The notes beneath the pieces were generated by a model. The model was not told where the DNA came from and searched no databases. It worked only from the letters and a program-made list of their open reading frames with translations. A stretch of DNA of 64,000 nt from assembly GCA_963849325.1 (NCBI GenBank), contig CAWKHF010000006.1:224001-288000 (forward strand), read 5' to 3'. The stretch comes from an uncultured Planctomycetota bacterium (GTDB lineage: Bacteria > Planctomycetota > Planctomycetia > Gemmatales > Gemmataceae). This document shows, piece by piece, positions 2,436 through 17,484 of the stretch (position 1 is its first letter; each line of letters opens with the position of its first letter). Made by a program: the position numbers and the translations under genes.

Positions 2436-5400
2436 TTCCGTGCGGGCGGAGAAGATCGAGTACAACCGCGACGTGCGGCCGATCCTGGCCGAGAACTGCT
2501 TCGCCTGCCACGGCCCGGACAGCGCCTCGCGCAAGGCCGACTTGCGCCTCGACCGCCGCGACGAGGCCGTCAAGGCCGAGGCCATCGTCCCCGGCAACCC
2601 GGACAAAAGCGACTCTGGTCGAGCGCATCTTCTCGGACGACAAGGCGCAGGTGATGCCGCCGCCGCAAGACGCACAAGAAGCTGACCGCCGCCCAGAAGG
2701 AGACGCTGAAGCGCTGGATCGCCGCCGGCGCCGAGTATCAGCCGCACTGGTCGTTCATCGCCGCCGAAGCGGCCGCCGCTGCCGGCGGTGAAGAACGCCG
2801 GCTGGGTGCGCAACCCCATCGATCGCTTCATCCTGGCCGAGCTGGAGAAGCGCGGCCTGCAGCCGGCGCCCGAGGCCGACCGCCGCACGCTGGCCCGCCG
2901 GCTGAGCCTCGACCTGACCGGCCTGCCGCCCGACGCCGGCCGAGGTCGAGGCGTTCGTCAACGACCAGCGGCCCGACGCCTACGAGCAGCTACGTCGATA
3001 AGCTGCTGGAGTCGCCGCACTGGGGCGAGCATCGCGGCCGCTACTGGCTCGACGCCGCCCGCTACGCCGACACGCACGGCATCCACTTCGACAACTACCG
3101 CGAGATCTGGGCCTACCGCGACTGGGTCATCAACGCCTTCAACCGCAACCTGCCGCTTCGACCAGTTCACCATCGAGCAGCTGGCCGGCGACCTGCTGCC
3201 GAACCGCACGCTCGATCAGCAGGTCGCGACCGGCTTCAACCGCTGCAACATCACCACCAACGAGGGCGGCGCGATCCCCGAGGAGTACCTGGTCCTCTAC
3301 ACGCGCGACCGCACCGAGACGACGTCGCGCAGGTCTGGCTGGGCCTGACCGCCGGCTGCGCCGTCTGCCACGACCACAAGTTCGATCCGCTCACGCACGA
3401 AAGAGTTCTACTCGATGTCGGCGTTCTTCAACAACACGACGCAGGGGGCGATGGACGGCAACATCAAGGACACGCCGCCGATCATGTTCGTGCCGCAGCC
3501 GGAGGACCGGCCGCGCTGGGACGCACTGGCGAAGGAGTTGGCCGAGGCGCGCAAGCAGGCCGAGGCGCGCAAGCAGGCCGCCCGCGCCGACTTCGACAAG
3601 TGGCTGGCGACGGCCGAAGCGCCGAGCAGATCGGCCAGCTCGATCCCGACCGACGGGCTGCGATCTGCACGCCGCGCTTGAGCGAGGGCAAGGGCAAGAC
3701 GGTCCACCTGACCGTGGACGGCAAGCCGCGGACGCTCGACGCTCGGCGTCGGGCATCGGCCTGGGACGCCGGCCACGTCGCGGCCAAGGCGTTCAAGAGC
3801 CAGCCGGGCGGCGTCCGTCGAGGTGCCGGACGCCGGCGACTTCGAGAAGGACCAGGCGCTTCTCCTACGGCGCCTGGGTGAAGCTGCCGACGAACGCGGC
3901 CCGACCGGCGCCGTCTTCGCCCGCATGGACGACAGGCACGACTTACCGCGGCTGGGACCTGTGGGTCGAGAACGGCCGCGTCGGCACGCACATCATCAAC
4001 AAGTGGCCGGACGACGCCCTCAAGGTCGTCGTGCCAAGACCCCGCTCAAGCCGGACCAGTGGAACCACGTGTTCGTCACCTACGACGGCTCCGGCAAGGC
4101 CGGCCGGCGTCAAGGTCTACGTCAACGGCGCGGCCGCAGCCGATCGACGTCGCAGGCCGACAAGCTGCAAGAGCACCATCCGCACGACGGTGCCGTTCAA
4201 GATCGCGCCAGCGGCACACCGACGTCGCGGCTCGACGGCCTGGTGCTGCAGGACGTGCGCCTCTACGGCCGCACCCTGCCCGGCCCGGAGGTCGAGCGGC
4301 TGGTCAAGGGCACGCGCGGCGCCTGGCTGCGGCGCAAGCCGGCCGGCAAGCGCACCGCCGCCGAGAACGAACGAGCTGTTCGACTGGTGGCTGACGGCCC
4401 TGGACCCGGCGTATCAGGAGCTGGCGAAAAAGCTGAGTGGACTGCAGCAGGAGGAGTCGGCCCTCAAGTCGCGCGGCACCATCGCCCACGTCATGCAGGA
4501 GAACCGGCCGAAGCCGATGGCCTACGTCCTGCATCCGCGGCGACTACGACAAGCGGCGCGACCCGGTGAAGGCGGGCACGCCCGAAGTCGCTGCCGCCGA
4601 TGCCGGCCGAGCTGCCGCGCAACCGGCTCGGCTTCGCGCAGTGGCTGTTGCGGCCGGAACAACCCGCTGACGGCCCGCGTCACGGTCAACCGCTTCTGGC
4701 AGGAAGTCTTCGGCACCGGCATCGTCCGGACCAGCGGCGACTTCGGCGTCACCGGCGAACTGCCCGTCCACCCCGAGCTGCTCGACTGGCTGGCGGTCGA
4801 GTTCCGCGAGACCGGCTGGGACGTCAAGCGGTTCTTCAAGCTGCTGGTGACGTCGGCGACCTATCGCCAGTCGGCGCGTGACGACGCCGAGAAGCTGGAG
4901 AAGGACCCGCACAACCGGCTGCTGTCGCGCGGCCCGCGCTTCCGCATGGACGCCGAGATGATCCGCGACTACGCCCTGGCGGCGAGCGGCCTGCTGGTGC
5001 GCAAGATCGGCGGGCCGAGCGTCAAGCCGTACCAGCCCGAGGGCGTCTGGGAGGCGGTGGCCATGATCGGCAGCAACACGCGCGACTACCGGCGCGACAG
5101 CGGCGAGCAACCTGTATCGCCGCAGCATGTACACGTTCTGGAAGCGGGCCGCCCCGCCGGCGTCGATGGACATCTTCAACGCCCCGAGCCGCGAGATCTG
5201 CACCGTGCGCCGCGAGCGCACCAACACGCCGCTGCAGGCGCTGGTGACGCTCAACGACCCGCAGTTCGTCGAGGCCGCCCGCTACCTGGCGCAGACGGCC
5301 CTGAAGGAAGGCGGCGACAAGGCCGAGGGCCGCATCGACTTCATGGCTCGGCGCCTGCTGTGCCGGCCGCTGCGCGCCGAGGAAGCGAAGGTGGTGCAAG

Positions 5401-7952: not shown

Positions 7953-8726
7953 ATGCCAACCGCGAAACCACCCCCCGCGCAGCCCACCAACCGTCTTCTG
8001 GCCCTTCTGCCGCCAGCCGAGTACCGGCGCCTTTCCGGCCACCTGCAAACCGTCTCCCTACCCGTGAAGCAAGTCCTTTATAAAGCCCGCTCGCCCATCG
8101 ATTACGTTTATTTCCCCGTCCGAGGCATCGTCTCGGCCATGACGATCATGGCAGACGGCCGGGCCATTGAGGTGGCCACGATCGGCAACGAGGGCATGGC
8201 GGGCCTGACGGCCTTCATCGGCGGCGAATCGTCGGCCAACGAGGTGATGGTGCAAGTGTCGGGCGAGGCCGTGCGGATGAGGGCGGCAACGCTGACCGAG
8301 GAGTGCGGCCGGGACGGCCCGTTACGACGACTCCTCATCCTCTACAACACGGCCTTTGCCACGCAGGTTTCGTACTCGGTGGCCTGCAACGGCCTGCACA
8401 AGGTCGAACAACGCTGCTGCCGTTGGCTGCTGATGACGCAAGACCGCGTAGGCTCCGACGTGCTGCCGCTCACGCATGAGTTTCTGTCGATCATGCTCGG
8501 CGTGCAGCGTTCGAGCGTCACGGAGGTCCTACATCCGCTCCAGGAACGGGGCCTGGTCCGCAACAGCCGGGGCCAGATCACGGTGAGGGACCGCCCCGGC
8601 CTGGAAGCCACTTCCTGCGAGTGTTACCGGGTCGTCAAGGACGAGTTCTCCCGCCTGTTCGGCTCCCAAGTTTCGCCGCGACGCGCAGCGGAGCGCGAGA
8701 CGCGCTCCGCTGCGCGTCGCGGCTAA
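7953..8726 (+). CDS. Crp/Fnr-family transcriptional regulator
   Basis: NRLLALLP, EVATIGNEG, LTHEFLSIMLGVQRSSVT HTH. Confidence 0.9.
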   Translation: MPTAKPPPAQPTNRLLALLPPAEYRRLSGHLQTVSLPVKQVLYKARSPIDYVYFPVRGIVSAMTIMADGRAIEVATIGNEGMAGLTAFIGGESSANEVMVQVSGEAVRMRAATLTEECGRDGPLRRLLILYNTAFATQVSYSVACNGLHKVEQRCCRWLLMTQDRVGSDVLPLTHEFLSIMLGVQRSSVTEVLHPLQERGLVRNSRGQITVRDRPGLEATSCECYRVVKDEFSRLFGSQVSPRRAAERETRSAARRG

Positions 8727-8728
8727 AC
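8670..8728. repeat. REP palindrome family A, supplies Crp stop codon
   Basis: GCCGCGACGCGCAGCGGAGCGC arms; copies at 34407, 35777, 38586. Confidence 0.85.
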
Positions 8729-8740
8729 GAAGTGGTGCGC

Positions 8741-9133
8741 TCACGAAGCGTTGACAACGTCCGTCCCCCGAGACGGTTTGCGTTTCCGCGGTCGGACGCC
8801 GCCACGTTTACTACCAGGAGGCGGAGGGACGGGACTCGGCGACGGTTCGGAGGGGACTTCGCGCAGCGCGACGATGTTCAGCCAGTGGCGAAACTCCAGC
8901 GTGCGCAGGCAGAGCGGACAGCGCAGGCGCGGCAAGTGCTCGTGGAAGAACGCCTTGACGCGCAGCCGGATCGTACGCACCGGACAGGGCGCGTGCGGGC
9001 ACGTCCACTCGCCCTCGAAACACGCCGGATGATCCGGTTTGTCGGCCGGTACTTCCGTATAAATGCGATCCATCAAGGCGCTGGCCGGCTGCACGCCCTC
9101 CAACGGCGGCACTACGCGGTAACATTTCGTCAT
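8741..9133 (-). CDS. Hypothetical Cys-rich protein (possible Zn ribbon)
   Basis: CPHAPC and CPLC motifs; ATGA overlap with upstream HTH gene. Confidence 0.55.
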   Translation of the reverse strand: MTKCYRVVPPLEGVQPASALMDRIYTEVPADKPDHPACFEGEWTCPHAPCPVRTIRLRVKAFFHEHLPRLRCPLCLRTLEFRHWLNIVALREVPSEPSPSPVPPPPGSKRGGVRPRKRKPSRGTDVVNAS

Positions 9134-9348
9134 TCGCATTCTCCCCGGTATGGGTAGGCGGACAACTCCTCCAGGTAGCGCTCGATGTCGGCGGCGCACC
9201 AGCGCGTGCTGCGGCGATGCGGATGTACCGGCGCCGGCAGCAGGGCCAACGCCGTCCAGCGCCACACCGTTCGTTCGCTGATCGACAACCGCCGCGCCAC
9301 GTCGCGCACGGTCAGCAAATCCGGTGAGATCGAGGGTGGCGAGGGCAT
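9130..9348 (-). CDS. AlpA/excisionase-like HTH protein
   Basis: LLTVRDVARRLSISERTVWRW...LPAP...TRW. Confidence 0.8.
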   Translation of the reverse strand: MPSPPSISPDLLTVRDVARRLSISERTVWRWTALALLPAPVHPHRRSTRWCAADIERYLEELSAYPYRGECE

Positions 9349-9414
9349 GAGTGACCTGAAGAAAAAACTCGTTCGCGGACGTTGGCTGGGATCGACGCGC
9401 GGAAAACAATCCCG

Positions 9415-9443
9415 AGGATACTGTACAATTGTTCATGTTGCAA
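9415..9443 (-). promoter_or_regulatory. Putative sigma70 promoter for HTH gene; -35 lies in the IS target duplication
   Basis: Minus strand TTGCAA-17 nt-TATCCT. Confidence 0.45.
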
Positions 9444-9540
9444 GGGCTTTGTTGCCAAACTTCCGCTTGTTGCAAAACCGATCCGGTTTGTCGCAAAACC
9501 GTCCGCCTGGAGAACTGGCAACAATTGTTGACAATTCGGC

Positions 9541-9569
9541 TTGACACATATACAGATGTTGGGTAATTT
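9541..9569 (+). promoter_or_regulatory. Near-consensus sigma70 promoter inside IS left end
   Basis: TTGACA-17 nt-TAATTT. Confidence 0.7.
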
Positions 9570-9576
9570 CTTTCCT

Positions 9577-9895
9577 GGACAATCCGCAGACTCAGGATGA
9601 GTCCGGCAGATGATTCGCTATAGAGGGTTGTGGTCTTTGCCGAAGGCTCCGAGAGCCGAACTGGCGATTGTCCGTGCCGCAGTAGGCGAAGTGGATTCAT
9701 AAGATTGCCCAGGCGAGCCTGCTGTGAGAACGTGACGAAGTGCCGCATCGGTAGGGCGAATTCTCCCCCCGCCCGCGCTTCTCTTTGAAGCAGTCTATTG
9801 CTGGCGCGAAACCACGAGAGCAAGGGGAATAACAGTACCCTTGACCAGTGGCTTTGCGCCGATTTCTTCTTTGGCCACTGGCAAGGGAAAGCCAG
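9577..9895 (+). ncRNA. Candidate structured non-coding RNA / leader carried by the IS
   Basis: Starts at the expected +1; GGACAATC/GATTGTCC closes a multi-hairpin domain; further hairpins to 9895; no convincing ORF. Confidence 0.45.
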
Positions 9896-9904
9896 AGGCC
9901 AATC

Positions 9905-10132
9905 ATGTATCGCAAATCTCGTCAAGTAACGGAACTGCTCGGTATCAGCTATTGGAAGCTGGTTTCGATGCTGCGCTCCGGTAAGCTCCCACAGCCACAG
10001 AAAGACGCGAGTGGCGACCTGATATTGTCTAGCCGCGATGTTGCCAATGCGCGTAAGGCGCTGGGGATCGACCGCCGCAAGCGGCCACGGCCTCGGAGTG
10101 CCATCATCACAGGCCCGGAGGATGGTAGATAG
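9905..10132 (+). CDS. Small MerR/excisionase-like HTH protein (IS cargo)
   Basis: 75 aa, RQVTELLGISYWKL...GKLPQPQKDASGD..DV wHTH pattern. Confidence 0.65.
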   Translation: MYRKSRQVTELLGISYWKLVSMLRSGKLPQPQKDASGDLILSSRDVANARKALGIDRRKRPRPRSAIITGPEDGR

Positions 10133-10192
10133 GGAAAAGACCCGGCAACGTCGGCCACCAACTGACAGGAAGGAACCGACGCGCCGGGGAGT

Positions 10193-10278
10193 GCGGGCGT
10201 GGCGAAAATGGTAAACGCAGCGGTTTAGCAAACCGCCGTGGTTTTCACCACTTGGGAGTTCGATCCTCCCCGCCCGCA
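10193..10278 (+). tRNA. Class II tRNA with Leu-type body and AGC (Ala) anticodon
   Basis: 7-bp acceptor GCGGGCG/CGCCCGC, D arm GCG-AAAATGGTAAA-CGC, anticodon arm GCGGT-TTAGCAA-ACCGC, long V arm, T arm GGGAG-TTCGATC-CTCCC, A73; CCA not encoded. Confidence 0.9.
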
Positions 10279-10444
10279 TTTCTTTCTTACGTTCTTTTTC
10301 GGACTTTGAGAAGTTGAAAAGCCTAACGAGCGAACCTTGCGGTTGCTCGCCGCCGGCGTAATCGTAGCGCAATTGAAGGGTATCTGTAGTCCGCTTCTCG
10401 GTCAAAGACGCATGAAAAAAATAGACCCAAACCCATTGCTGCCA

Positions 10445-10473
10445 TTTACTTGCATCGATCTCCTGTATATAAT
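10445..10473 (+). promoter_or_regulatory. Putative transposase promoter
   Basis: TTTACT-17 nt-TATAAT followed by hairpin GCCTCCG...CGGAGGC. Confidence 0.5.
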
Positions 10474-10609
10474 TACAGCAGACAAAAAGAAAGCCTCCGC
10501 CGTTGCTAGTAACAACGCCGGAGGCAGATGCAACCGGCGCGGTAACGCCAGAAGCACCCTCGAAAGCCATTCTAGCGTTCCCGCCCCGGACAGGGGAAGG
10601 GAACAATCC

Positions 10610-11863
10610 GTGGACATCCGCGAACAGAAAGCCGTTGAGCTTGCCGACCGAGGCCGCGTCGTCAAGCGGCCGAACGGTTGGCTCATCTACTCCCTTAACA
10701 GCTCCGAAAAGTATTTCGTCACCGTGTTGCCACTGTCCTGTACTTGCGCGGATTTCGAGCTGCGGCAAGAGCCGTGCAAGCATGTCCTTGCCGTGCAAAT
10801 TACCCTGTCCCGTGAAGCCAGCGGTTCTCTCACCGAGCAGAGCACGGAGACGCCGCCGATCAACTGGCCGCGAAAAACCTACCAACAGGATTGGCCGAAC
10901 TACGACGCCGCGCAGGAAAACGAGAAAAGAGAGTTTCGCTATCTCTTGTCCGACTTGTGCAGTACCATTCCGCAGCCCGAACCCAAGGGCGGGACGAAGG
11001 GCGGCAGACCGGCCGCGCTTCTGTCCGACGTGATTTTCGCCAGCGTCTTCAAGGTCTATTCGGGCCTGTCCGGTCGGCGTTTCAACACCGACCTGGAAGA
11101 AACTCAAGAGCGCGGCTTCGTCTCTGCCGTCGTTCACCACAGCAGGATTGCCCGTTGCCTGGAGGACGAGGAAACAACTCCGCTCCTCGTCCGCCTCATC
11201 GAAGCGAGCGCTCTGCCGTTCCGGGCCATTGAGACGGAATTCGCCGTGGACAGCAGCGGCTTTTCGTCGTGCAAGTTCGACCGCTGGTACAGCGTCAAGT
11301 GGGGCCGCGTCATGTCGAAGCATTCGTGGGTCAAGGTCCACGTTATCTGCGGCAGTACTACCCACGTCGTTACCAGCGTCATCGTCGGGACCAAAGACTC
11401 TTCGGATGCTCCGCAATTCGCTCCCCTCGTAAAGACGACGGCCCGAAACTTCACCATCGGTCAAGCGAGCGCCGACAAGGCGTATGCGTCGGCCGAAAAC
11501 TTTGAAATCGCGGAGGAGTGCGGCGGCACTCCCTACATCGCCTTCAAGAGCAATGCGACGGGAGCGGTCGGCGGCGTTTATGAGCGCATGTACCACCTGT
11601 TTTGCTTGAACAAGGAAGACTACCTCCACCATTACCATCGACGAAGCAACGTGGAGTCCGTCTTCAGCGCCGTCAAGCGCCTGTTCGCCGACGCCGTGCG
11701 GAGCAAGCACGAAACCGCGATGAAGAACGAGGCTCTGTGCAAGCTGCTCGCCTACAACATTACCCTGCTGGTTCACGCGATCTACGAGCTTGGTCTTGAG
11801 CCTCGGTTCGCGGATGAACACGACGAACCCCCTTTCATCTTGCCGATGGTTCGGCCCGGTTAG
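10610..11863 (+). CDS. DDE transposase with N-terminal SWIM zinc finger
   Basis: CTCADF...CKH (SWIM); DSSGF, ADKAY, YHRRSNVESVFSAVK (Y-2-R-3-E-6-K); GTG start after purine-rich RBS. Confidence 0.92.
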   Translation: MDIREQKAVELADRGRVVKRPNGWLIYSLNSSEKYFVTVLPLSCTCADFELRQEPCKHVLAVQITLSREASGSLTEQSTETPPINWPRKTYQQDWPNYDAAQENEKREFRYLLSDLCSTIPQPEPKGGTKGGRPAALLSDVIFASVFKVYSGLSGRRFNTDLEETQERGFVSAVVHHSRIARCLEDEETTPLLVRLIEASALPFRAIETEFAVDSSGFSSCKFDRWYSVKWGRVMSKHSWVKVHVICGSTTHVVTSVIVGTKDSSDAPQFAPLVKTTARNFTIGQASADKAYASAENFEIAEECGGTPYIAFKSNATGAVGGVYERMYHLFCLNKEDYLHHYHRRSNVESVFSAVKRLFADAVRSKHETAMKNEALCKLLAYNITLLVHAIYELGLEPRFADEHDEPPFILPMVRPG

Positions 11864-12091
11864 CGGCTCCGGGGTTTTGCAACAGAATACCGGCCTGTTG
11901 CTAAACTGCTGATCCTGTTGCAAAACCTCTGTTGCTAAACTGGTTTGGCAACAAAGCCATGTTGCAAGAGAAAAAAATTGACTGCGGACGGATGGCGCGA
12001 GGTGGCACGAAATGGCGGCAAATGACAGGAAGGGCGGGGACCGGACTTCGTTTTGCCCGAGGGGACGGCTACCATGAGCGGGGAGGTGAGT

Positions 12092-12385
12092 ATGAATGAA
12101 TTACCCGCTCCGCCGGATGCGGCCGGCGATCCCGAGTCCGTGGAACTGCTGCGGGCCTGGGTCGTGCGCGAGACGCTGCAATGCTCGCTGCAAGCCGATG
12201 TCTTCCCCGACCCCGGCACCTGGGGCGCCGTCCTGGCCGACGTGGTTCGCTACGTCGCCAGCGCCGTCGAGCAGCAGGACGGCACCCCCGCCGCCCAGAC
12301 GGCTCGGCGCATCCTCGATGTGTTCGCCGAGGAGATGCGCTCCTCTCCCGATGAAGGAGCGACCCCCACAGAGCCTGAAGCGTAA
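12092..12385 (+). CDS. DUF5076-like small protein
   Basis: GGAGGT RBS; ELPAPPDA...ELLRAW...PGTWGAVLADVVR pattern. Confidence 0.7.
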   Translation: MNELPAPPDAAGDPESVELLRAWVVRETLQCSLQADVFPDPGTWGAVLADVVRYVASAVEQQDGTPAAQTARRILDVFAEEMRSSPDEGATPTEPEA

Positions 12386-12421
12386 GCGAAGAGTATCCCT
12401 TCTTCGCTTACGCTTCAGGCT
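12372..12421. repeat. REP palindrome family B
   Basis: AGCCTGAAGCGTAAGCGAAG / CTTCGCTTACGCTTCAGGCT; copies at 19530, 59193. Confidence 0.85.
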
Positions 12422-15400
12422 GTTAGCGCATCCCGGACGCCGGCCGCTCCGACGCCTTGCGCAGGCGCTGGTCGGGGCCGTTGTTTCCACGCCTTGACGT
12501 CCTCTTGCAGCACCTGGACCGCCTTCGTCAACTGCACGTCCACGCCGCGCGGCATCTGGCCCGGCTCGGGCCAAACGATGGGATCGGGCACGGCGCCGTT
12601 CAACTCCATGTCCTCGCCGTCGTTGACGAGGAACCAGCCGCGGTACGGTACGCGGATCAGGCCGACGTCCATGATGAGTGCCGCTCCGGTGCTGACGACG
12701 CCGCCGGCGGTGGGCACGCCGACGAGCCGGCCGCGCTTCAGCGTTTTGATGGCGTGACTGAAAATCTCGGCGTTGCTGAAGCTGTTCTGGTTGCACAGCA
12801 CGACGATGGGCTTGTTCCAGGTGGCGTAGATCTTGCGGTCGTGCGGGTAGCCGGGTCCGCCGCCGCGCGGCACGGTGACGGCGTGGACCGGCTGCGTCAG
12901 GGCCGTCAGCAGGTGGTCCGCCGTGTTGCCGCCGCCGTTCTCGCGCACGTCGATGACCAGGCCGTCCTTGCCGGCGCCGACGGCGTACAACTGTTCCTCG
13001 AACTTGCTGAAGCTGACCGGGTCCATGGCGCTGATGTGCAGGTAGCCCAGCGTCCCCCGCACGGCGCGAGCCACCTCTCGGCGATTGTGTTCCAGCCAGG
13101 CCTGGTAAAGCAGCGGCGGCACCAGCTTGTACGAGATCGGACGCAGGACCACGTCGCGCTCCTCGCCCTCGGTCCCGCGCACGCGCAGGTACACGTCGCG
13201 CGGCAGCGGGCCGTTCAGCACGCGCGTTAAATCCATGTCCGGCTCGACGGCCGTATCCTCGATCTTGAGGATGACTTCGCCCGCGCGCAGACGGCCCTTC
13301 TTCTGGTCGGCCGGCCCGCGCGGCAGCACGTCGCGCACCTTCAGTCCCGGACCCGGATAGTCCGGCTGGAAACGCACGCCCAGGTGCGCGGTCGTCTCGG
13401 ACCATTTGGCGGAGGGCGCCTCCGCCGCCGGCGGATGGAAGCGGACGAAGCCTGGACTGCCGGGCGGATAAAAGCCCAGGTGCGAGCCGTTCAATTCGCC
13501 GAGCATCAGCTGAACGACGGTGGTGAACGCCTCGCTGTCGGGGGCCTCGGCGGCCCTATCGAGATACTTGCGGCGGATGGCCGGCCAATCGCGGTTGCCG
13601 AGGCGCTCGTCGTACCAGCGATCGCGGCATGGTGCGCCAGCACAGATCGAAGGCGGCGCGGTTGCGCTGGGCCAGATCCACGCGCTGCAAGGCCTGGAAG
13701 CGATAACCTCCCGGGACCGATTCGCCGGCCGCAGTGGACGCCGGGCCGCGCCGCGCCGGCTCGGCCGGCTCGGTTGTCGCCGACTTCGCCGCGCCCGGCG
13801 TGAAGCTCGCCGGCAGGCCGTTCGACAACCACACCACCTGATTGCCCTGTTTTAGCCAGCGCGGCCGGCTGCCCGTCTGCGCCGTCAGGAATTTCGGTTT
13901 GAGATCGTCGGGGACCTCGATGGTGTACGTCCCTCGTTTGCCCTCGATGACGGCCGTGAAGGCCAGCTTCTTCGAGTCCGGCGACCAGAACAGGCCACTC
14001 TCCGTCGCATGGGGGATCGAGACGCGATGAAGGCGCGCGTGAATGTTGTCGAAGTCGATGACCACCTCCGGCGCCCGCGCCGGTCCCGCGGCGCGGTTGT
14101 CCTCGGCGACGCCTTTCTTTTTGCGCACTTTGTTGATCTTTTCCAGCGCTTTATCGAGGCTGCGTCCGCGTCCGCCTTTCTCATCGTCCTCGGCGCGGAG
14201 CCAGACGTAATGGATGTCCACCTCGGTCAGTCCGCGCCGTCCGGTGAAGGCGAGGAGGCGACCGTCCGGCGACCACACCGGGTTGCCGTCGTTGTAGGGA
14301 TGGCGCGACAGGTTGAACGGCTTGCGCGAAGCGTCGGCAGGCACGATCCAGACATCGCGGTTGAAATCGCTGTCGCTGTGGGCGTAGACCAGCCATTTGC
14401 CGTCGGGCGACCAGTCGTATTCCAGCTCGTCCCACGATGGCACCAACCGCCGGGCGTTGCGGCCGTCGGCGTCGGCGATCCACAGATCGCCCCGGCCGCG
14501 CAGGTAGGCGAGGCGCGAACCATCGGGGCTGAAGGTCAGGTTCGACTTGACCTCGCCGTCGTCGCTCAAGCGTTCGAGCCGGAAGCGGCTGTTTTGCCAC
14601 CACGGTTTATTGGGGTCGGCGCGGACGGCGCGCCAGATGTCCGAGCGCGCTTCGCGGTCGGCCACGAACAGGAGCGTCTGTCCGTCCGGCGCGAAGACGG
14701 GACGCTTTTCCTCCTCGGCGGTGGCCGTCACCTGTCGCGGCTCGCGCAGCTCGGTATCCATGACCCACAGGTCACCGCCGGCGATGAAGGCGACCTCCAG
14801 GCCGTCCGCCGTGAACGCCGCCTCGCTCGCCTGCCGCAGGACACGGTTCTCGATGCGGTCCTTCACTGGGTCGCTGTCGTGGCGGACTTCGATCTTCCAC
14901 GGTTTTTTGTCTCGGCCGGGGTGCAGACCATAGAGGTCGAACAGGTGGCGGAAGACGAGCGTGGAGCCGTCGCGGGAGACGCACGGAAAGACAACCGAGT
15001 CGTCGCGGAAGTGCGTCAACTGTTCGCCCGAGCCGGAGGCGAGGTCATGGACCCAGAGGTTGAACGAACCGCCGTGCGCGCCGACGTAGTAAAAGCCCTT
15101 ACCATCCGGCTTCCACAGCGGCCAACGGCAGCCGGTGTCCTCGTCGAGCAAGCGACGGAACGTCCGGGCTTGGAGATCGTAGAGCCAGATCTGGCTGGCC
15201 TGCGAGCCGCGATAGCCCTTGCGCCACCAGGCCGGACCCTCGCGCGTGAACAGCAAGCGCTTGCCGTCGGGCGACAGGCAGCCGTTCTGCCCATAGTCGT
15301 CGAACAGCAGCCGCTCGACCTGGCGCACCTCCGCACCGATGGAGAAGAAGCGTTCGGCGTGGCGCCAGAAGTGATCGCGGACAGCGTTGATCAGGAGGCG

Positions 15401-15769
15401 CCGCCCATCGGGATACCAGTCCTGGAGCGAGCAGCCGGCCGTATGGTAGGTGAGCTGCCCTGGCGTGCCGCCGGCGGTGGGCATGACGTGGACCTGCGCC
15501 GCGCCGCTGCGCTCGCTGATGAAAGCGAGGCGCTGGCCGTCGGGCGAAAAGTGCGGCTGGCGGTCGCGGGCCGGATGCTGGGTCAAGCGCCGGGCGACTC
15601 CGCCGGCGGTGGGTACGGTCCAGACGTCGCCGTCCCAGTCGAAGGCGAGGAGGGCGCCGTCGGGCGACAGGGCAGGATGGTTGGCCAGGCGGATGACTTC
15701 GTCGGCGCGGCCGGGACCGGCCACGAACACCAGGACCGCCGCGATCAGCGAAAGAGCAGCGTGCTTCAC
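12415..15769 (-). CDS. Tricorn-like S41 protease (PD40 beta-propellers, PDZ, S41), frameshifted near 13.5-13.6 kb
   Basis: Signal peptide, repeated SPDG motifs, IDVRENGGG, SFSNAEIF catalytic region. Confidence 0.9.
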
Positions 15770-15937
15770 GGTGAATCCTCCGATACGCGGAAGGGGATGC
15801 GCGTCCGAGAGCGGGACGACAGGCATTGTGTCCATCCGTCGCCGACCTGGCAAGCGACTTCCGCGTTGGCGACGGTGTCTCTTGCGAGCCGCGCCCTCGG
15901 CGCGTATTCTGAGAGGGTGATCCGACCGACGGATCCT

Positions 15938-16032
15938 GGGAGCGTTTGCACCTCTGGTGGGGGCCCTGGTCTTCAAAACCAGTGGCGGGTTTGAACAAAG
16001 CTCGCTGTGGGTTCGATTCCCATACGCTCTCG
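15938..16032 (+). tRNA. selC: tRNA-Sec (anticodon TCA)
   Basis: 8-bp acceptor GGGAGCGT/ACGCTCTC, 5-bp T stem, TGGT D loop, CTGGT-CTTCAAA-ACCAG, long V arm, G73. Confidence 0.92.
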
Positions 16033-16132
16033 ATAAATGGTTTCGGAACCTTTGCCCAACCCTCCAGCGCAAGCTATCTGTTGCAAGGAGTCCATCTCGT
16101 TCAGGATCGCTGGCTGGTGCTCGCCGAACCGT

Positions 16133-16621
16133 TCATCCTCCCGGCCCGTTCGCCGGCTGTCCAGTCTCGTGGGCGTTGATCCGGGCGATGAGCGAATGGA
16201 TCAACGCTCGAACGGTCTGAGATTGGAGGACTTCCTGAACCAACCGGATGAATTCATCGTCCGTCACCGCCTGCCGCTGGAGCAGCGACGGGTCTATCGC
16301 GTGTGCGAAGGAGGCTGTGACCGCCTGCAACGGAGTGCGTGGCTTGGGGGCGAACGCCAGGGCGGTGACCGTCACGGGGTAGAGCCTGTCTATCGCATGA
16401 GTGGCCGACAGTAGCCGCTCTCGGTAGAAGTTGAGGCCGGGAGCGATGAGGTCCAACTGATGCTGAACCAATTGGTCTGTCTCCGTAGTCGTGAGCTTGG
16501 CCTGGAGCATCCCTTGCGTCTTCTGGGACAACCGCCCCTCTTGAGCCCGGAGGATCGCAATCGGCGGCAAGACATTTACCTTGATGTCGTCTGACCAGAG
16601 GTCGGGGATAGTCGTGGCCAT
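16133..16621 (-). CDS. Hypothetical protein downstream of EEP nuclease
   Basis: MATTIPDLW...ILRAQ...LSQKTQG; RBS GGGAGAG; 17 nt after EEP stop. Confidence 0.75.
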   Translation of the reverse strand: MATTIPDLWSDDIKVNVLPPIAILRAQEGRLSQKTQGMLQAKLTTTETDQLVQHQLDLIAPGLNFYRERLLSATHAIDRLYPVTVTALAFAPKPRTPLQAVTASFAHAIDPSLLQRQAVTDDEFIRLVQEVLQSQTVRALIHSLIARINAHETGQPANGPGG

Positions 16622-16638
16622 GATGTCTCTCCCTACGT

Positions 16639-17484
16639 TTACAGGTTGAGCCGGAACAATACGGGGAGATGGTCCGACGCTTCGGACGATCGGGGCCGTC
16701 TCCTGTCCGTCAGAAGGGATTGCTGTCCATCGTCTTCCAGGATACGCAACTCCGCCAGTGCATCCATCAAAGCGGGCCGCAGCAACACCTGGTCGAACAG
16801 GTGCCAGTAGTAGCCGCGGGGGCTGGAGGCCGAGTAAAAGTAGGTTCCCGCTGGCCCCGGCGTCCGGTCCCCGAAGCAGCCCCATATCGGGTTATAGAAG
16901 AAGCGGTAAGGCCGTCCCGCCACTGTCCGCTCCTCACCCCTGGCGAGATCACGGGTCATGACGGCGTTGAGAGCTTGCGCACCGACCATGCCCAGGTCGA
17001 ACGGATTCATGTTCAGGTCGCCAACCAGCACCGTTCGCTGGTGCCCCACTACATCCTCGGTATCCGTGATGTTCCGCTGCAAGACGGTCGCCTGCAGAGC
17101 CTGATCGTTGACATCCCACCCCATCTGGCTCTGGAAGTGCAAGCCTGCGAGCAGTATGTCCGCCGTGGGCGAGATCATCAGGCGGCGGATCGTCAGGCGG
17201 CCATCGGACGAGTCGTTGAATTGATCGATTACCGCCGCTTGCGGGAAACGGGTGAAGAGTTGGATGCGCTGGCTGTTGCTGGGTGGGTAGCAAAAGGTGG
17301 CTGACCCGCCGCCGTTGAGCGCTCCGAGGACTTCAAACGGGTCGAAGGCGGACTCAGCCAGCAGAAGCACCTCAACGCCGAAGTGAGAGACGATCTGGGC
17401 GATGTGGGTACGCAGGACCGGCACCCGTGCGGTCCAAGTCGTTGTCTGGTTGCCCATCAGGTTCCAAAACAGAAACGTAATCAT
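16639..17484 (-). CDS. Endonuclease/exonuclease/phosphatase (EEP) family protein
   Basis: FWN, LAE, VGDLNMNP, FDQVLL, SDHLPV catalytic motifs. Confidence 0.88.
   Translation of the reverse strand: MITFLFWNLMGNQTTTWTARVPVLRTHIAQIVSHFGVEVLLLAESAFDPFEVLGALNGGGSATFCYPPSNSQRIQLFTRFPQAAVIDQFNDSSDGRLTIRRLMISPTADILLAGLHFQSQMGWDVNDQALQATVLQRNITDTEDVVGHQRTVLVGDLNMNPFDLGMVGAQALNAVMTRDLARGEERTVAGRPYRFFYNPIWGCFGDRTPGPAGTYFYSASSPRGYYWHLFDQVLLRPALMDALAELRILEDDGQQSLLTDRRRPRSSEASDHLPVLFRLNL

Follow-up and report, generated by a model that had tools for sequence, protein, structure and literature searches.

The closest described relatives of the mobile element reported here are insertion sequences (IS) of the IS5 family, in particular its IS903 group. 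Classic transposases of this group are about 300 aa long and contain an HTH, and IS5-family elements are compact, consisting of a transposase without passengers. IS that carry passenger genes are known in ISfinder as transporter IS (tIS); they unite one transposase and passenger DNA within a single pair of ends, and to our knowledge their passengers are regulators, methyltransferases and resistance genes. SWIM zinc fingers occur in eukaryotic Mutator-like (MULE) transposases, where they lie C-terminal to a Mutator/IS256-type DDE core. On the tRNA side, natural mismatches between anticodon and identity are represented by the mistranslating tRNA-Pro variants of Streptomyces and by phage-encoded suppressor tRNAs, some of them on mobile DNA; we know of none reported within an insertion sequence. 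The passages of Mukai et al. (Nucleic Acids Res 2017, PMC5389517) cited here describe the allo-tRNAs of Acidobacteria and others, which have a long variable arm, an 8/4 or 9/3 acceptor/T arrangement and mostly Ser identity. According to the same passages, one allo-tRNA scaffold bears many non-cognate anticodons, including those for stop codons, while identity comes from the body; a possible link to transposable elements and toxin-antitoxin genes was noted, and some allo-tRNAs were inactive in E. coli translation (PMC5389517).

The window, which is the whole analysed stretch of 64,000 nucleotides from an uncultured bacterium of the Gemmataceae, contains at 9445-11958 an IS (Table 1) that has in common with the IS5 family a DDE_Tnp_1 core with DDE and YREK residues. 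The inverted termini of its family resemble the GGC-TTGTT-type ends of ISAs4 from the IS903 group, and the 9-bp target duplication of that group is also the norm in its family, whereas the window copy reads 10 bp. However, the transposase is 21-27% identical to its closest annotated relatives, which are IS5-family transposases, and scores 103.4 bits with the NCBIfam model transpos_IS5_2, below the cut-off of 140, with the remaining IS models lower still. An N-terminal SWIM finger, a length of 417 aa and multiple subterminal repeats further set the element apart from the IS903 group. Nor is it compact: the transposase CDS takes up 1254 of 2514 bp, i.e., about half of the unit, as an earlier note made from the DNA letters had estimated. 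One transposase and passenger DNA within a single pair of ends are what defines a tIS, but the recurrent passenger in this family is a tRNA. A SWIM zinc finger and a DDE transposase are shared with MULE proteins, although in the window protein the finger is N-terminal to an IS4/IS5-type core, which looks like convergent domain use and not membership. As for the allo-tRNAs, as far as the cited passages describe them, the window scaffold resembles them in its long variable arm and in bearing seven anticodons in seven members; unlike them, it is Leu-type and has a canonical 7/5 arrangement (no 8/4 or 9/3 12-bp branch), and its carrier is an IS defined by ends, duplication and empty site. The Streptomyces tRNA-Pro variants and phage suppressors differ from the window tRNA in scaffold, host and carrier.

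Table 1. Features of the element and its immediate flanks, in window positions
Feature	Position	Strand	Basis or remark
Left target-site duplication copy	9435-9444	.	Same as 11959-11968; single in G104 and G108, which have the empty site
Insertion sequence, 2514 bp	9445-11958		Ends, target duplication and empty sites
IRL, 16 nt	9445-9460	+	100% complementary to 11943-11958
Three subterminal 14-nt repeats	9449-9501 (9449-9462, 9467-9480, 9488-9501)	+	Presumed transposase-binding sites
Possible promoter of passenger transcript	9529-9571	+	Two TTGACA hexamers and a weak -10, read by eye
Structured non-coding leader, ~330 nt	9572-9904	+	MFE -138.8 kcal/mol
Predicted gene of a 75-aa MerR/excisionase-like small DNA-binding protein	9905-10132	+	Domains of homologues
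Long hairpin immediately 5' of tRNA, 5' edge of the tRNA slot	10142-10189	+	Fold and conservation
Class-II 7/5 tRNA with long variable arm, anticodon AGC	10193-10278	+	Rfam, ARAGORN, covariation
T-rich trailer behind tRNA	10279-10303	+	Probable role in termination or processing
Transposase promoter, TTTACT - 17 nt - TATAAT	10445-10473	+	Consensus scan, 10/12 matches
Structured 5' leader of transposase mRNA	10493-10609	+	13-bp hairpin (10493-10525), then Shine-Dalgarno-pairing domain
Transposase gene, 417 aa, GTG start	10610-11863	+	Pfam and alignment
Right subterminal repeats	11873-11942	+	One inverted (11873-11884), three direct (11895-11908, 11915-11928, 11929-11942)
IRR, 16 nt	11943-11958	-	Pairs with IRL
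Right target-site duplication copy	11959-11968	.	Same as 9435-9444

All features of the earlier note except one were found where it had placed them. The repeat scan recovered its perfect 16-bp inverted repeats and its 10-bp duplication on either side of a 2514-bp unit, and IRL and IRR were the sole perfect 16-nt inverted pair within 9300-12100. The scan itself returned a duplication of 11 nt because the base 5' of the left copy happens to be identical to the final base at the right end. An overcalled G in a GGG run, which had been invoked to bring the duplication down to 9 bp, is unnecessary, since 10 bp is what is read. The subterminal repeats amount to six copies, none of which was detected outside the two element ends, and judging by the sequence we presume them to be transposase-binding sites. 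In two species of the same genus (G104, C264, and G108, C3), the flanks are contiguous and the target is single; with this empty site in two congeners, the element is a true insertion. All of the passenger DNA is lacking there, i.e., both the tRNA and the 75-aa ORF are absent, and so the relatives show an empty site and not the cargo without its inverted repeats, which would have spoken against the earlier proposal. In its own genome the complete element is single-copy, with one solo left-end remnant elsewhere. Overall, the IS at 9445-11958 is autonomous, was inserted recently and carries cargo: inverted repeats, duplication, empty sites and cargo inside the ends all agree with the recently active transporter IS that the note had proposed. 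In the course of transposition, the SWIM domain might recognise the terminal and subterminal repeats, and a staggered cut by the DDE core would then give rise to the 9-10 bp duplication.

The transposase gave Pfam matches to SWIM (3.8e-08, N-terminal) and DDE_Tnp_1 (5.2e-21), which bears out the N-terminal SWIM finger and the YREK signature recognised beforehand; the latter corresponds to Y342-R345-E349-K356. Across ten aligned transposases, C44, C46, C56 and H58 are invariant, and so are the triad D214, D289, E349 and the residues Y342, R345 and K356. The transposase promoter is the only sigma-70-like site that the consensus scan reported within 9300-12100, and it is kept in C5 of the own genome, in L018 and in L021. 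For the transposase leader, RNAalifold on six elements yielded a fold of 34 pairs, 11 of them with compensatory changes, and no Rfam match was obtained. Neither this leader nor the passenger one matched an Rfam model of a T-box or other known cis-regulatory RNA. A T-box-like or codon-anticodon pairing of the tRNA with the leader or hairpin loops was considered and rejected, with neither a co-varying triplet nor an Rfam T-box to be seen.

A single-protein scan of genome contigs gave two loci, and the family was collected by a search across genomes. It includes at least 3113 proteins at E<=1e-20, many of them at 60-83% identity. Within the bacterial family, 86 of 251 genomes have a match, as opposed to 0 of 15 in the sister family, and 599 of 608 metagenome candidates proved to be relatives. 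The GGCTTTG-type terminus is shared with 19 other delimited members, each with a perfect flush 9-bp duplication. These 19 relatives span 2213-5235 bp for a transposase gene of 1.25 kb, and there is always 1-4 kb of passenger DNA. Homologue counts, Pfam matches, YREK and termini thus all speak for the IS family with a SWIM finger and IS5/IS903-like core and ends that had been suspected; large, mostly encountered in Gemmataceae and with cargo as an obligatory component, it appears to be undescribed. A literature search, with bioRxiv supplements and closed journals outside its scope, returned neither a paper describing this SWIM/IS5-like family nor a report of tRNA passengers in IS. The order of modules is conserved (hairpin, tRNA with T-rich trailer, transposase promoter, leader pairing the ribosome-binding site, transposase), while the remaining passengers vary between elements: among 55 passenger ORFs of >=100 aa from 17 delimited elements, many of which overlap one another and may be spurious, two had Pfam matches (PLDc_2 and DUF6471).

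Of 91 scorable family members, 15 have a co-oriented tRNA 150-460 nt 5' of the transposase, so that tRNA cargo is not peculiar to the window copy, as it would be if homologues never carried it. By sample, the upstream slot held a tRNA in 6/30 other-genome loci, 1/40 further loci and 7/61 metagenome loci, whereas ~0.3% would be expected for such a slot if calculated from the 92 tRNA genes present in 8.16 Mb. Of the 21 tRNAs seen in family loci, 15 occupy this single slot, which lies 5' of the transposase and shares its orientation. Delimiting the homologues and tabulating their anticodons, a check that the earlier note had suggested, placed the tRNA inside the inverted ends in 7/7 delimitable tRNA-bearing elements (6/6 others and the window copy) and revealed seven anticodons on the scaffold. 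In L115 the tRNA is downstream and on the opposite strand, yet still within the ends. No tRNA was found in the other 76 of the 91 scorable members, and hence it is not needed for transposition; Rfam at the gathering threshold found no tRNAs missed by ARAGORN in 20 ARAGORN-negative loci. On the transposase tree, 12-13 gains and losses are required for 15 carriers, and shuffled labels were equally low in 17/200 and 73/500 shuffles. It is also worth mentioning that in G162 a Leu-type tRNA is found just 5' of a transposase of the unrelated IS1595 family; convincing inverted ends were not found for this IS1595-type element.

The co-oriented tRNA that had been read in the left half of the element is confirmed inside the inverted ends by Rfam (53.3 bits, cut-off 29) and by ARAGORN, which reads the anticodon as AGC (Ala). 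At E<=1, Rfam reported nothing besides tRNA and tRNA-Sec across 8000-17000. With its 7/5 arrangement, the molecule follows the Rfam tRNA model over the full length, and covariation agrees with this arrangement. In its D-arm (3-bp D-stem, Leu-type D-loop) and A73, the molecule matches host tRNA-Leu genes, unlike those for Ser or Tyr, and for 7/7 scaffold members the host scaffold that fits best is a Leu one, with an identity margin over Ser that is small (0.01-0.04). Position 3:70 is G:C in all seven, so that the G3:U70 pair is absent and with it Ala identity. At the same time, AGC is not a leucine anticodon (NAG or YAA), and GCU is a minor codon, making up about 11% of Ala codons. The hairpin upstream of the tRNA is kept in C6 and C5 of the own genome, in G107 and in G108, where the tRNA bodies differ, and T-rich trailers are likewise present behind the tRNA of C5 of the own genome, G108 and G009. 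The consensus scan of 9300-12100 detected no promoter directly 5' of the tRNA.

Six relatives on the same tRNA scaffold have anticodons UUC, CCC, UUA, UGG, UCC and ACC, so that each of the seven members has its own. The cloverleaf is 96.5% paired over the seven, with 16 of 25 pairs altered on both sides, a level of covariation reached by 0/500 shuffles. Compensatory changes are found in all five helices, including the anticodon stem (97% paired, 3/5 pairs compensatory) and the variable arm (4/5). U33 and A37 are invariant in 7/7 members, while the triplet differs in all of them, and we take these patterns as a sign of selection on the tRNA. Since the scaffold is directed at Glu, Gly, Pro and ochre codons in sister elements, we regard the anticodon triplet as the diversifying part. 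A scaffold pattern search of 252 genomes of the bacterial family, allowing two mismatches, gave 12 matches in 10 genomes: five real tRNAs and seven chance matches in other sequence.

On balance, we lean towards the interpretation that the IS transports, as cargo, a missense-suppressor tRNA that is probably charged with leucine and has AGC on a body of the tRNA-Leu type. E. coli LeuRS disregards the anticodon and depends on A73 and tertiary elements of the D-arm; because the anticodon is not read by this enzyme, the tRNA is probably leucylated. In this scenario, the IS would supply a structurally intact tRNA-Leu-type molecule with the anticodon changed to AGC, host LeuRS would probably charge it, and an unmodified A34 would let leucine enter at the minor Ala codon GCU, making the tRNA a mobile missense suppressor. 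As to the benefit, we can only guess that low-level recoding or translational stress might favour retention or activity of the element. It should be kept in mind that two anticodons of sister elements, UUC and UGG, are directed at abundant codons (GAG, 33 per 1000, and CCG, 35 per 1000); efficient leucylation of these sisters would be very toxic, which points to weak expression or charging, or else to a role outside decoding. The small margin of Leu over Ser, the lack of a detected promoter directly 5' of the tRNA and the single copy of the element also count against missense suppression, and the fixed tRNA slot hints at a link in cis to transposase expression. A wider proposal, which we put forward tentatively and with more doubt than confidence, is that Gemmataceae IS are vehicles for diversifying anticodon-swapped, intact Leu-/Ser-type class-II tRNAs, which would occupy a conserved slot beside the transposase and be exchangeable there. 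Under this proposal, at least two transposase families that are unrelated to each other, SWIM/IS5-like and IS1595, would be accompanied by such tRNAs, with codons for Ala, Glu, Gly, Pro and Cys as well as stop codons as their targets.

Several other explanations must be weighed against leucine-charged suppression. As a strongly folded, self-contained unit ending in a T-rich trailer, the tRNA might act in cis without decoding, terminating passenger or outside transcripts and being processed out of them, and so insulating the transposase promoter and leader against read-through, with the anticodon left to drift. The fixed, co-oriented upstream position, the trailers, a slot edged by a conserved hairpin although tRNA bodies vary, and the tRNA in front of the IS1595-family transposase would all make sense in such a case. 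However, termination and RNase P/Z processing can dispense with the anticodon arm, and a plain hairpin would suffice, whereas compensatory changes preserve the anticodon stem, and U33 and A37 stay constant around a triplet that changes in every scaffold member. Moreover, the transposase owns a conserved promoter downstream of the tRNA, and the L115 tRNA is situated within the ends but downstream and on the opposite strand. Overall, we consider a role in cis unlikely, albeit the foremost competitor of leucine-charged suppression. Less probable still, in our opinion, is a regulatory RNA that does not decode, either an uncharged A-site mimic or one whose anticodon loop binds a protein or RNA partner, the triplet being the specificity determinant. 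Conservation of the whole cloverleaf and anticodon-loop geometry around a hypervariable triplet would be in line with it, and in the cited passages a regulatory non-coding role is raised for the anticodon-variable allo-tRNAs (Mukai et al., PMC5389517). Against it, inspection by eye of the transposase leader and hairpin loops in five tRNA-bearing elements revealed no co-varying anticodon-complementary triplet, and the scaffold retains all features of a chargeable tRNA-Leu.

The patchy distribution on the transposase tree, with gains and losses barely below those of shuffled labels, and the majority of members without a tRNA might suggest a decaying hitch-hiker, that is, a host tRNA-Leu gene captured by chance whose anticodon mutated neutrally and which has no function. 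We find this very unlikely, given the compensatory changes in five helices, the invariant universal tRNA positions and an Rfam score far over the cut-off; seven non-Leu anticodons on one scaffold are also unlike neutral decay. Private codon supply, in which the tRNA would decode a rare codon enriched in its own transposase and thereby gate transposition, was disfavoured and hardly seems credible. Cognate codons are not enriched: GCT occurs 4 times in the window transposase against 0-6 in nine others and, by eye, 0 times in the 75-aa ORF; CTA is absent from the UAG-carrying element, and GGG is found twice in the CCC-carrying one. Furthermore, a Leu-type scaffold would insert the wrong residue.

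Natural tRNAs with discordant body and anticodon are rare and mostly isolated curiosities. In the present case, such a tRNA is tied physically to a mobile element that is defined and whose recent insertion is proven, and among its relatives the anticodon is the sole part that keeps changing. If the tRNA is charged, the element would represent a natural experiment on tolerated codon ambiguity, on the start and horizontal spread of codon reassignment, and on the gain of a selfish element. If such tRNAs are charged and decode as well, this would amount to naturally and horizontally spreading missense and nonsense suppression, with a jumping gene rewriting the meaning of host codons. Should the tRNA have its role in cis, on the other hand, it would illustrate a new mode of IS control over its own transposase. 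The orthogonal-looking class-II scaffolds also form a compact set of possible use in genetic-code engineering.

Finally, we would like to comment on the passengers peculiar to this copy. The roughly 320 nt of structured sequence reported for the left half hold up, the fold of 9572-9904 (z -4.28) being more stable than all 100 shuffles (0/100 as stable). This leader has no Rfam match at E<=1, and no similar DNA was found elsewhere in the genome or in four related elements. A degenerate second tRNA inside it was considered and dropped: a 16-nt match between 9767-9782 and 10268-10283 does not extend, and the local alignment score of leader and tRNA is 33 (shuffled mean 29.4, sd 5.3, max 51). The strong promoter claimed for the left half was not confirmed; two TTGACA hexamers are visible, yet the consensus scan of 9300-12100 reported no site at 9529-9571. 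The idea of a single conserved cassette does not hold either, the structured leader and the HTH gene being restricted to this copy. Of the 75-aa HTH gene, the ORF itself is real: among 251 other genomes from the bacterial family, 12 have homologues, with E down to 1e-13, and none of these homologues adjoins a transposase or tRNA. The cargo is therefore not non-coding, contrary to the initial description. The HTH assignment is supported indirectly, since the ORF's own HTH_17 match has an E of 0.061, while its homologues match MerR_1, HTH_17 and Rv2175c_wHTH.

The element under study, an insertion sequence (IS) of 2514 bp from a genome of 8.16 Mb and 65% G+C whose nearest relatives are labelled Gemmataceae, is a true insertion. 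The earlier note had described it as bounded by perfect inverted ends and a flanking duplication, and repeat analysis of 9300-12100 agreed. An empty site, proposed as a check, does exist in relatives: a 5.6-kb query across the element, run against 10 other genomes of the genus, found both flanks adjacent, with ~10 bp of overlap, at G104:C264 and G108:C3, and both loci read as the target sequence once, with nothing separating the flanks. The duplication of the present copy is 10 bp long, or 9 bp with one ambiguous base, and does not pass as a flush 9-bp one; an overcalled G had been invoked here, and no sequencing error is needed for the explanation. Other copies were also looked for in the same genome. 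The present copy is the only full one, accompanied by an intact paralogue (L002), six degraded transposase remnants of the family and a solo left end, which has no transposase behind it; a tRNA-Ser gene of the host is ~410 nt away from this end. The paralogue repeats the hairpin-tRNA-leader layout and differs in its left subterminal repeats; no clear right end was seen, and its tRNA is an irregular type-I body of 78 nt, read as having the anticodon GCU.

Features of the element and of related loci (plain numbers, window positions, the window being G000:C6:224001-288000; G, genome, G000 being the one under study; C, contig; L, locus from a genome or metagenome)
Feature	Position	Remarks
Direct duplication of target	9435-9444 = 11959-11968	flanks inverted repeats
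Inverted repeats	9445-9460 / 11943-11958	16 nt, perfectly complementary; sole perfect pair that long within 9300-12100
Subterminal 14-nt repeat	element ends	6 copies: 3 left, 3 direct at right; an inverted copy in addition
Long hairpin 5' of tRNA	10142-10189	kept in this element, L002, G107, G108
tRNA	10193-10278	Rfam general tRNA model end to end, 53.3 bits (cut-off 29)
Long ORF (transposase)	10337-11863	Pfam SWIM 3.8e-08, DDE_Tnp_1 5.2e-21
Transposase promoter	10445-10473	sole site reported by promoter scan
Transposase leader, 13-bp hairpin	10493-10525	followed by domain pairing the ribosome-binding region
Paralogous element L002, intact	G000:C5:716340-718500	transposase 48% identical to that of this element
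Solo left end	G000:C5:61572-61640	inverted repeat and two subterminal repeats, 84% identical to present left end
Scaffold tRNA UUC	G108	5' of family transposase
Scaffold tRNA CCC	G009	5' of family transposase
Scaffold tRNA UUA	G158	5' of family transposase
Scaffold tRNA UCC	G158, second element	5' of family transposase
Scaffold tRNA ACC	L115 (metagenome)	within ends of family element
Scaffold tRNA UGG	L067 (G162:C24) 3089-4221, minus strand	at most ~170 nt 5' of, and co-oriented with, IS1595-family transposase

Comparison with relatives indicates that translation of the transposase begins at a GTG codon (10610), so that the protein has 417 aa. Its SWIM finger and YREK core, recognised from the outset, were confirmed by Pfam and by a 10-sequence alignment, in which C44, C46, C56 and H58 of the SWIM motif (CxC...CxH), the triad D214, D289 and E349, and Y342-R345-E349-K356 are all invariant. 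The closest annotated plasmid proteins are the IS5-family transposases ISAs4, ISVpa3 and ISRm33, with 21-27% identity across the core; the ends of the element are similar to those of ISAs4, and its first ten bases match what we take to be the IS903 end. In its mode of action, the element resembles a transporter IS of the IS5/IS903 type. However, it lies outside curated IS5 membership (the best NCBIfam model, IS5_2, gives 103 bits against a cut-off of 140), and its N-terminal domain differs. The SWIM domain would bind the repeated end motifs.

Within the bacterial family, 86 of the 251 other genomes had a transposase match, versus none of 15 from the sister family. The 3113 proteins matching at E<=1e-20 are named only 'transposase', and 599 of 608 candidate metagenome stretches were relatives. 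A strict search for inverted ends matching in at least 11 of 14 positions, flush with a perfect 9-bp duplication, returned 21 rows out of 107 transposase matches; once a duplicate pair (L022 = L069) was counted singly and a doubtful row dropped, 19 elements of 2213-5235 bp remained, all with GGCTTTG termini. Every one of them exceeds its own transposase gene by 1-4 kb, so cargo is the rule. No description of this IS family, or of IS-borne tRNAs with variable anticodons, was found in the full-text literature, ISfinder being outside the scope of the search.

The tRNA is an integral cargo of this mobile, cargo-carrying IS. Its presence inside the inverted ends, claimed before, is supported by the Rfam match and the delimited ends, and the search for tRNA cargo in homologous elements was also successful: the tRNA lies within the inverted ends in all six other delimited tRNA-bearing elements. 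When the slot was scored as a co-oriented tRNA 150-460 nt 5' of the transposase, it was filled in 6/30 distinct loci from other genomes, in one of 40 further loci (37 distinct) and in 7/61 metagenome loci with enough upstream DNA, the chance expectation being ~0.3% (calculated for a genome of 8.16 Mb with 92 tRNA genes). Rfam revealed no missed tRNA in 20 ARAGORN-negative loci. When 101 transposases (15 with a tRNA, 76 without, 10 unscorable) were placed on a FastTree tree, the carriers required 12-13 changes, hardly below shuffled labels, which indicates that the tRNA was often gained, lost or swapped. The clade of the present element, G107 and G108 is tRNA-positive throughout (3/3), with three anticodons on two bodies.

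In the Rfam alignment, the tRNA of the present element has a long variable arm, and its acceptor and T-stem measure 7 and 5 bp, respectively. Its anticodon is AGC; position 3:70 is G:C, and the alanine identity pair is therefore absent. Compared with the class-II tRNAs of the host, its D-arm and A73 fit tRNA-Leu and not Ser or Tyr, and a comparison that masked the anticodon placed Leu first among the host tRNAs, by a small margin. The host already has tRNA-Ala genes with GGC, UGC and CGC, while GCU makes up ~11% of the alanine codons in a rough ORF set.

Six further members of this Leu-type scaffold were found. Across the seven, the cloverleaf is under purifying selection and the anticodon is hypervariable: U33 and A37 are invariant, and the triplet differs in 7/7. 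The class-II cloverleaf is 96.5% paired (42-59% in slid controls), 16 of 25 pairs have changed on both sides, with compensatory change in all five helices, and none of 500 shuffles attains any of five pairing measures. The UGG member accompanies a transposase with DDE_Tnp_IS1595 (Pfam, 2.5e-44) and the IS1595 zinc ribbon; the odd tRNA-transposase association thus crosses IS families. Element ends were searched for at this locus and not found. Other bodies occur as well, namely Ser-type with ACA and UAA (L144, L147), a Sec-like body of 92 nt with UAG (G107) and, in further family elements, type-I bodies with GCU, or with CCC where the body is Arg-like.

How might such a tRNA act? It would be transcribed with or after the passenger gene, ending at a T-rich trailer. 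Since LeuRS of E. coli recognises its tRNA by A73 and the fold of the D-arm, with no reading of the anticodon, we propose that LeuRS would charge the element tRNA, which would then insert leucine at GCU. Such missense suppression has to be weighed against a tRNA kept as a mere terminator or processing signal, which would not require an anticodon stem, U33 or A37; their conservation argues for decoding, or at least for an anticodon-loop function. Several points, however, speak against a leucine-charged suppressor: the position beside the transposase is strongly fixed, leucylation would make the UUC or UGG sisters highly toxic, and most family members are without a tRNA. A private-codon role and anticodon-leader pairing were tried with negative results.

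In its behaviour, the element tRNA resembles the allo-tRNAs portrayed by Mukai et al. (PMC5389517; review PMC7609411), where a link with transposable elements was already suspected (PMC5389517). Unlike the 8/4 or 9/3 Ser-type allo-tRNAs described there (PMC5389517), it is of canonical 7/5 Leu type.

The present element and its closest relatives (L002 and elements of G107, G108, G105 and G009) have the transposase promoter and structured leader in common, and RNAalifold gives 34 pairs for the latter, 11 of them with compensatory changes. The tRNA bodies differ between conserved flanks in this element, L002, G107 and G108. Left of the long hairpin, all DNA varies by element, other ORFs being present in G107 and G108. 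Herein lie the two passengers of the present element, a 330-nt region and a 75-aa ORF, for which neither the related elements nor the rest of the genome offers a counterpart. The ORF is a real gene: of 251 other genomes, 12 contain homologues (E to 1e-13), several of which match MerR_1, HTH_17 or Rv2175c_wHTH (its own HTH_17 match has E 0.061), and in these 12 genomes none adjoins a transposase or tRNA. The 330-nt region folds better than 100/100 shuffles (z -4.28) and is without an Rfam match; a decayed tRNA copy was ruled out, and we read the region as the leader of the captured gene. Overall, the observation of the earlier note is confirmed and its interpretation largely holds; the novelty is the conserved tRNA slot and the anticodon diversification, not the leader and HTH passengers.

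By the insertion site, the minus strand of 9130-9348 encodes a 72-aa HTH_17/excisionase-type protein (Pfam 1.4e-09) that shares its broad fold class with the 75-aa passenger; this gene belongs to the host, since the flank is conserved in congeners. At 8663-8749, just 3' of a Crp-like regulator gene, there is a ~60-nt palindromic repeat with dozens of further copies, 88-98% identical and lying on both strands, in this genome and congeners; it looks like a REP/MITE-like dispersed repeat. A tRNA-Sec gene at 15938-16031 (Rfam 72 bits, ARAGORN anticodon TCA), ~4 kb right of the element and unrelated to it, indicates that the host uses selenocysteine.

Several other tRNAs also deserve comment. In G000, a 72-nt type-I tRNA with UUA, of ochre-suppressor type (C2:189639-189710), lies ~970 nt 5' of, and co-oriented with, a degraded transposase of the element's family. 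Another, with GGU and an acceptor stem that may be 8 bp long (C6:448563-448637), is co-oriented with a second degraded family transposase, 315 nt 5' of it, and calls to mind the irregular GGU tRNAs noted in Mukai et al. (PMC5389517). Metagenome locus L106 has a GCC tRNA 5' of its transposase and, 2.2 kb 3' of it (4338-4497), two more, with ACU and CUA (amber-suppressor type). Finally, three dense arrays of 7 to 13 tRNA genes in G000 (C1:515629-516193, C4:433741-435175 and C12:838476-839555) contain, among others, 'tRNA-Leu' genes of 74 nt that lack a long variable arm, and may be mobile tRNA arrays.
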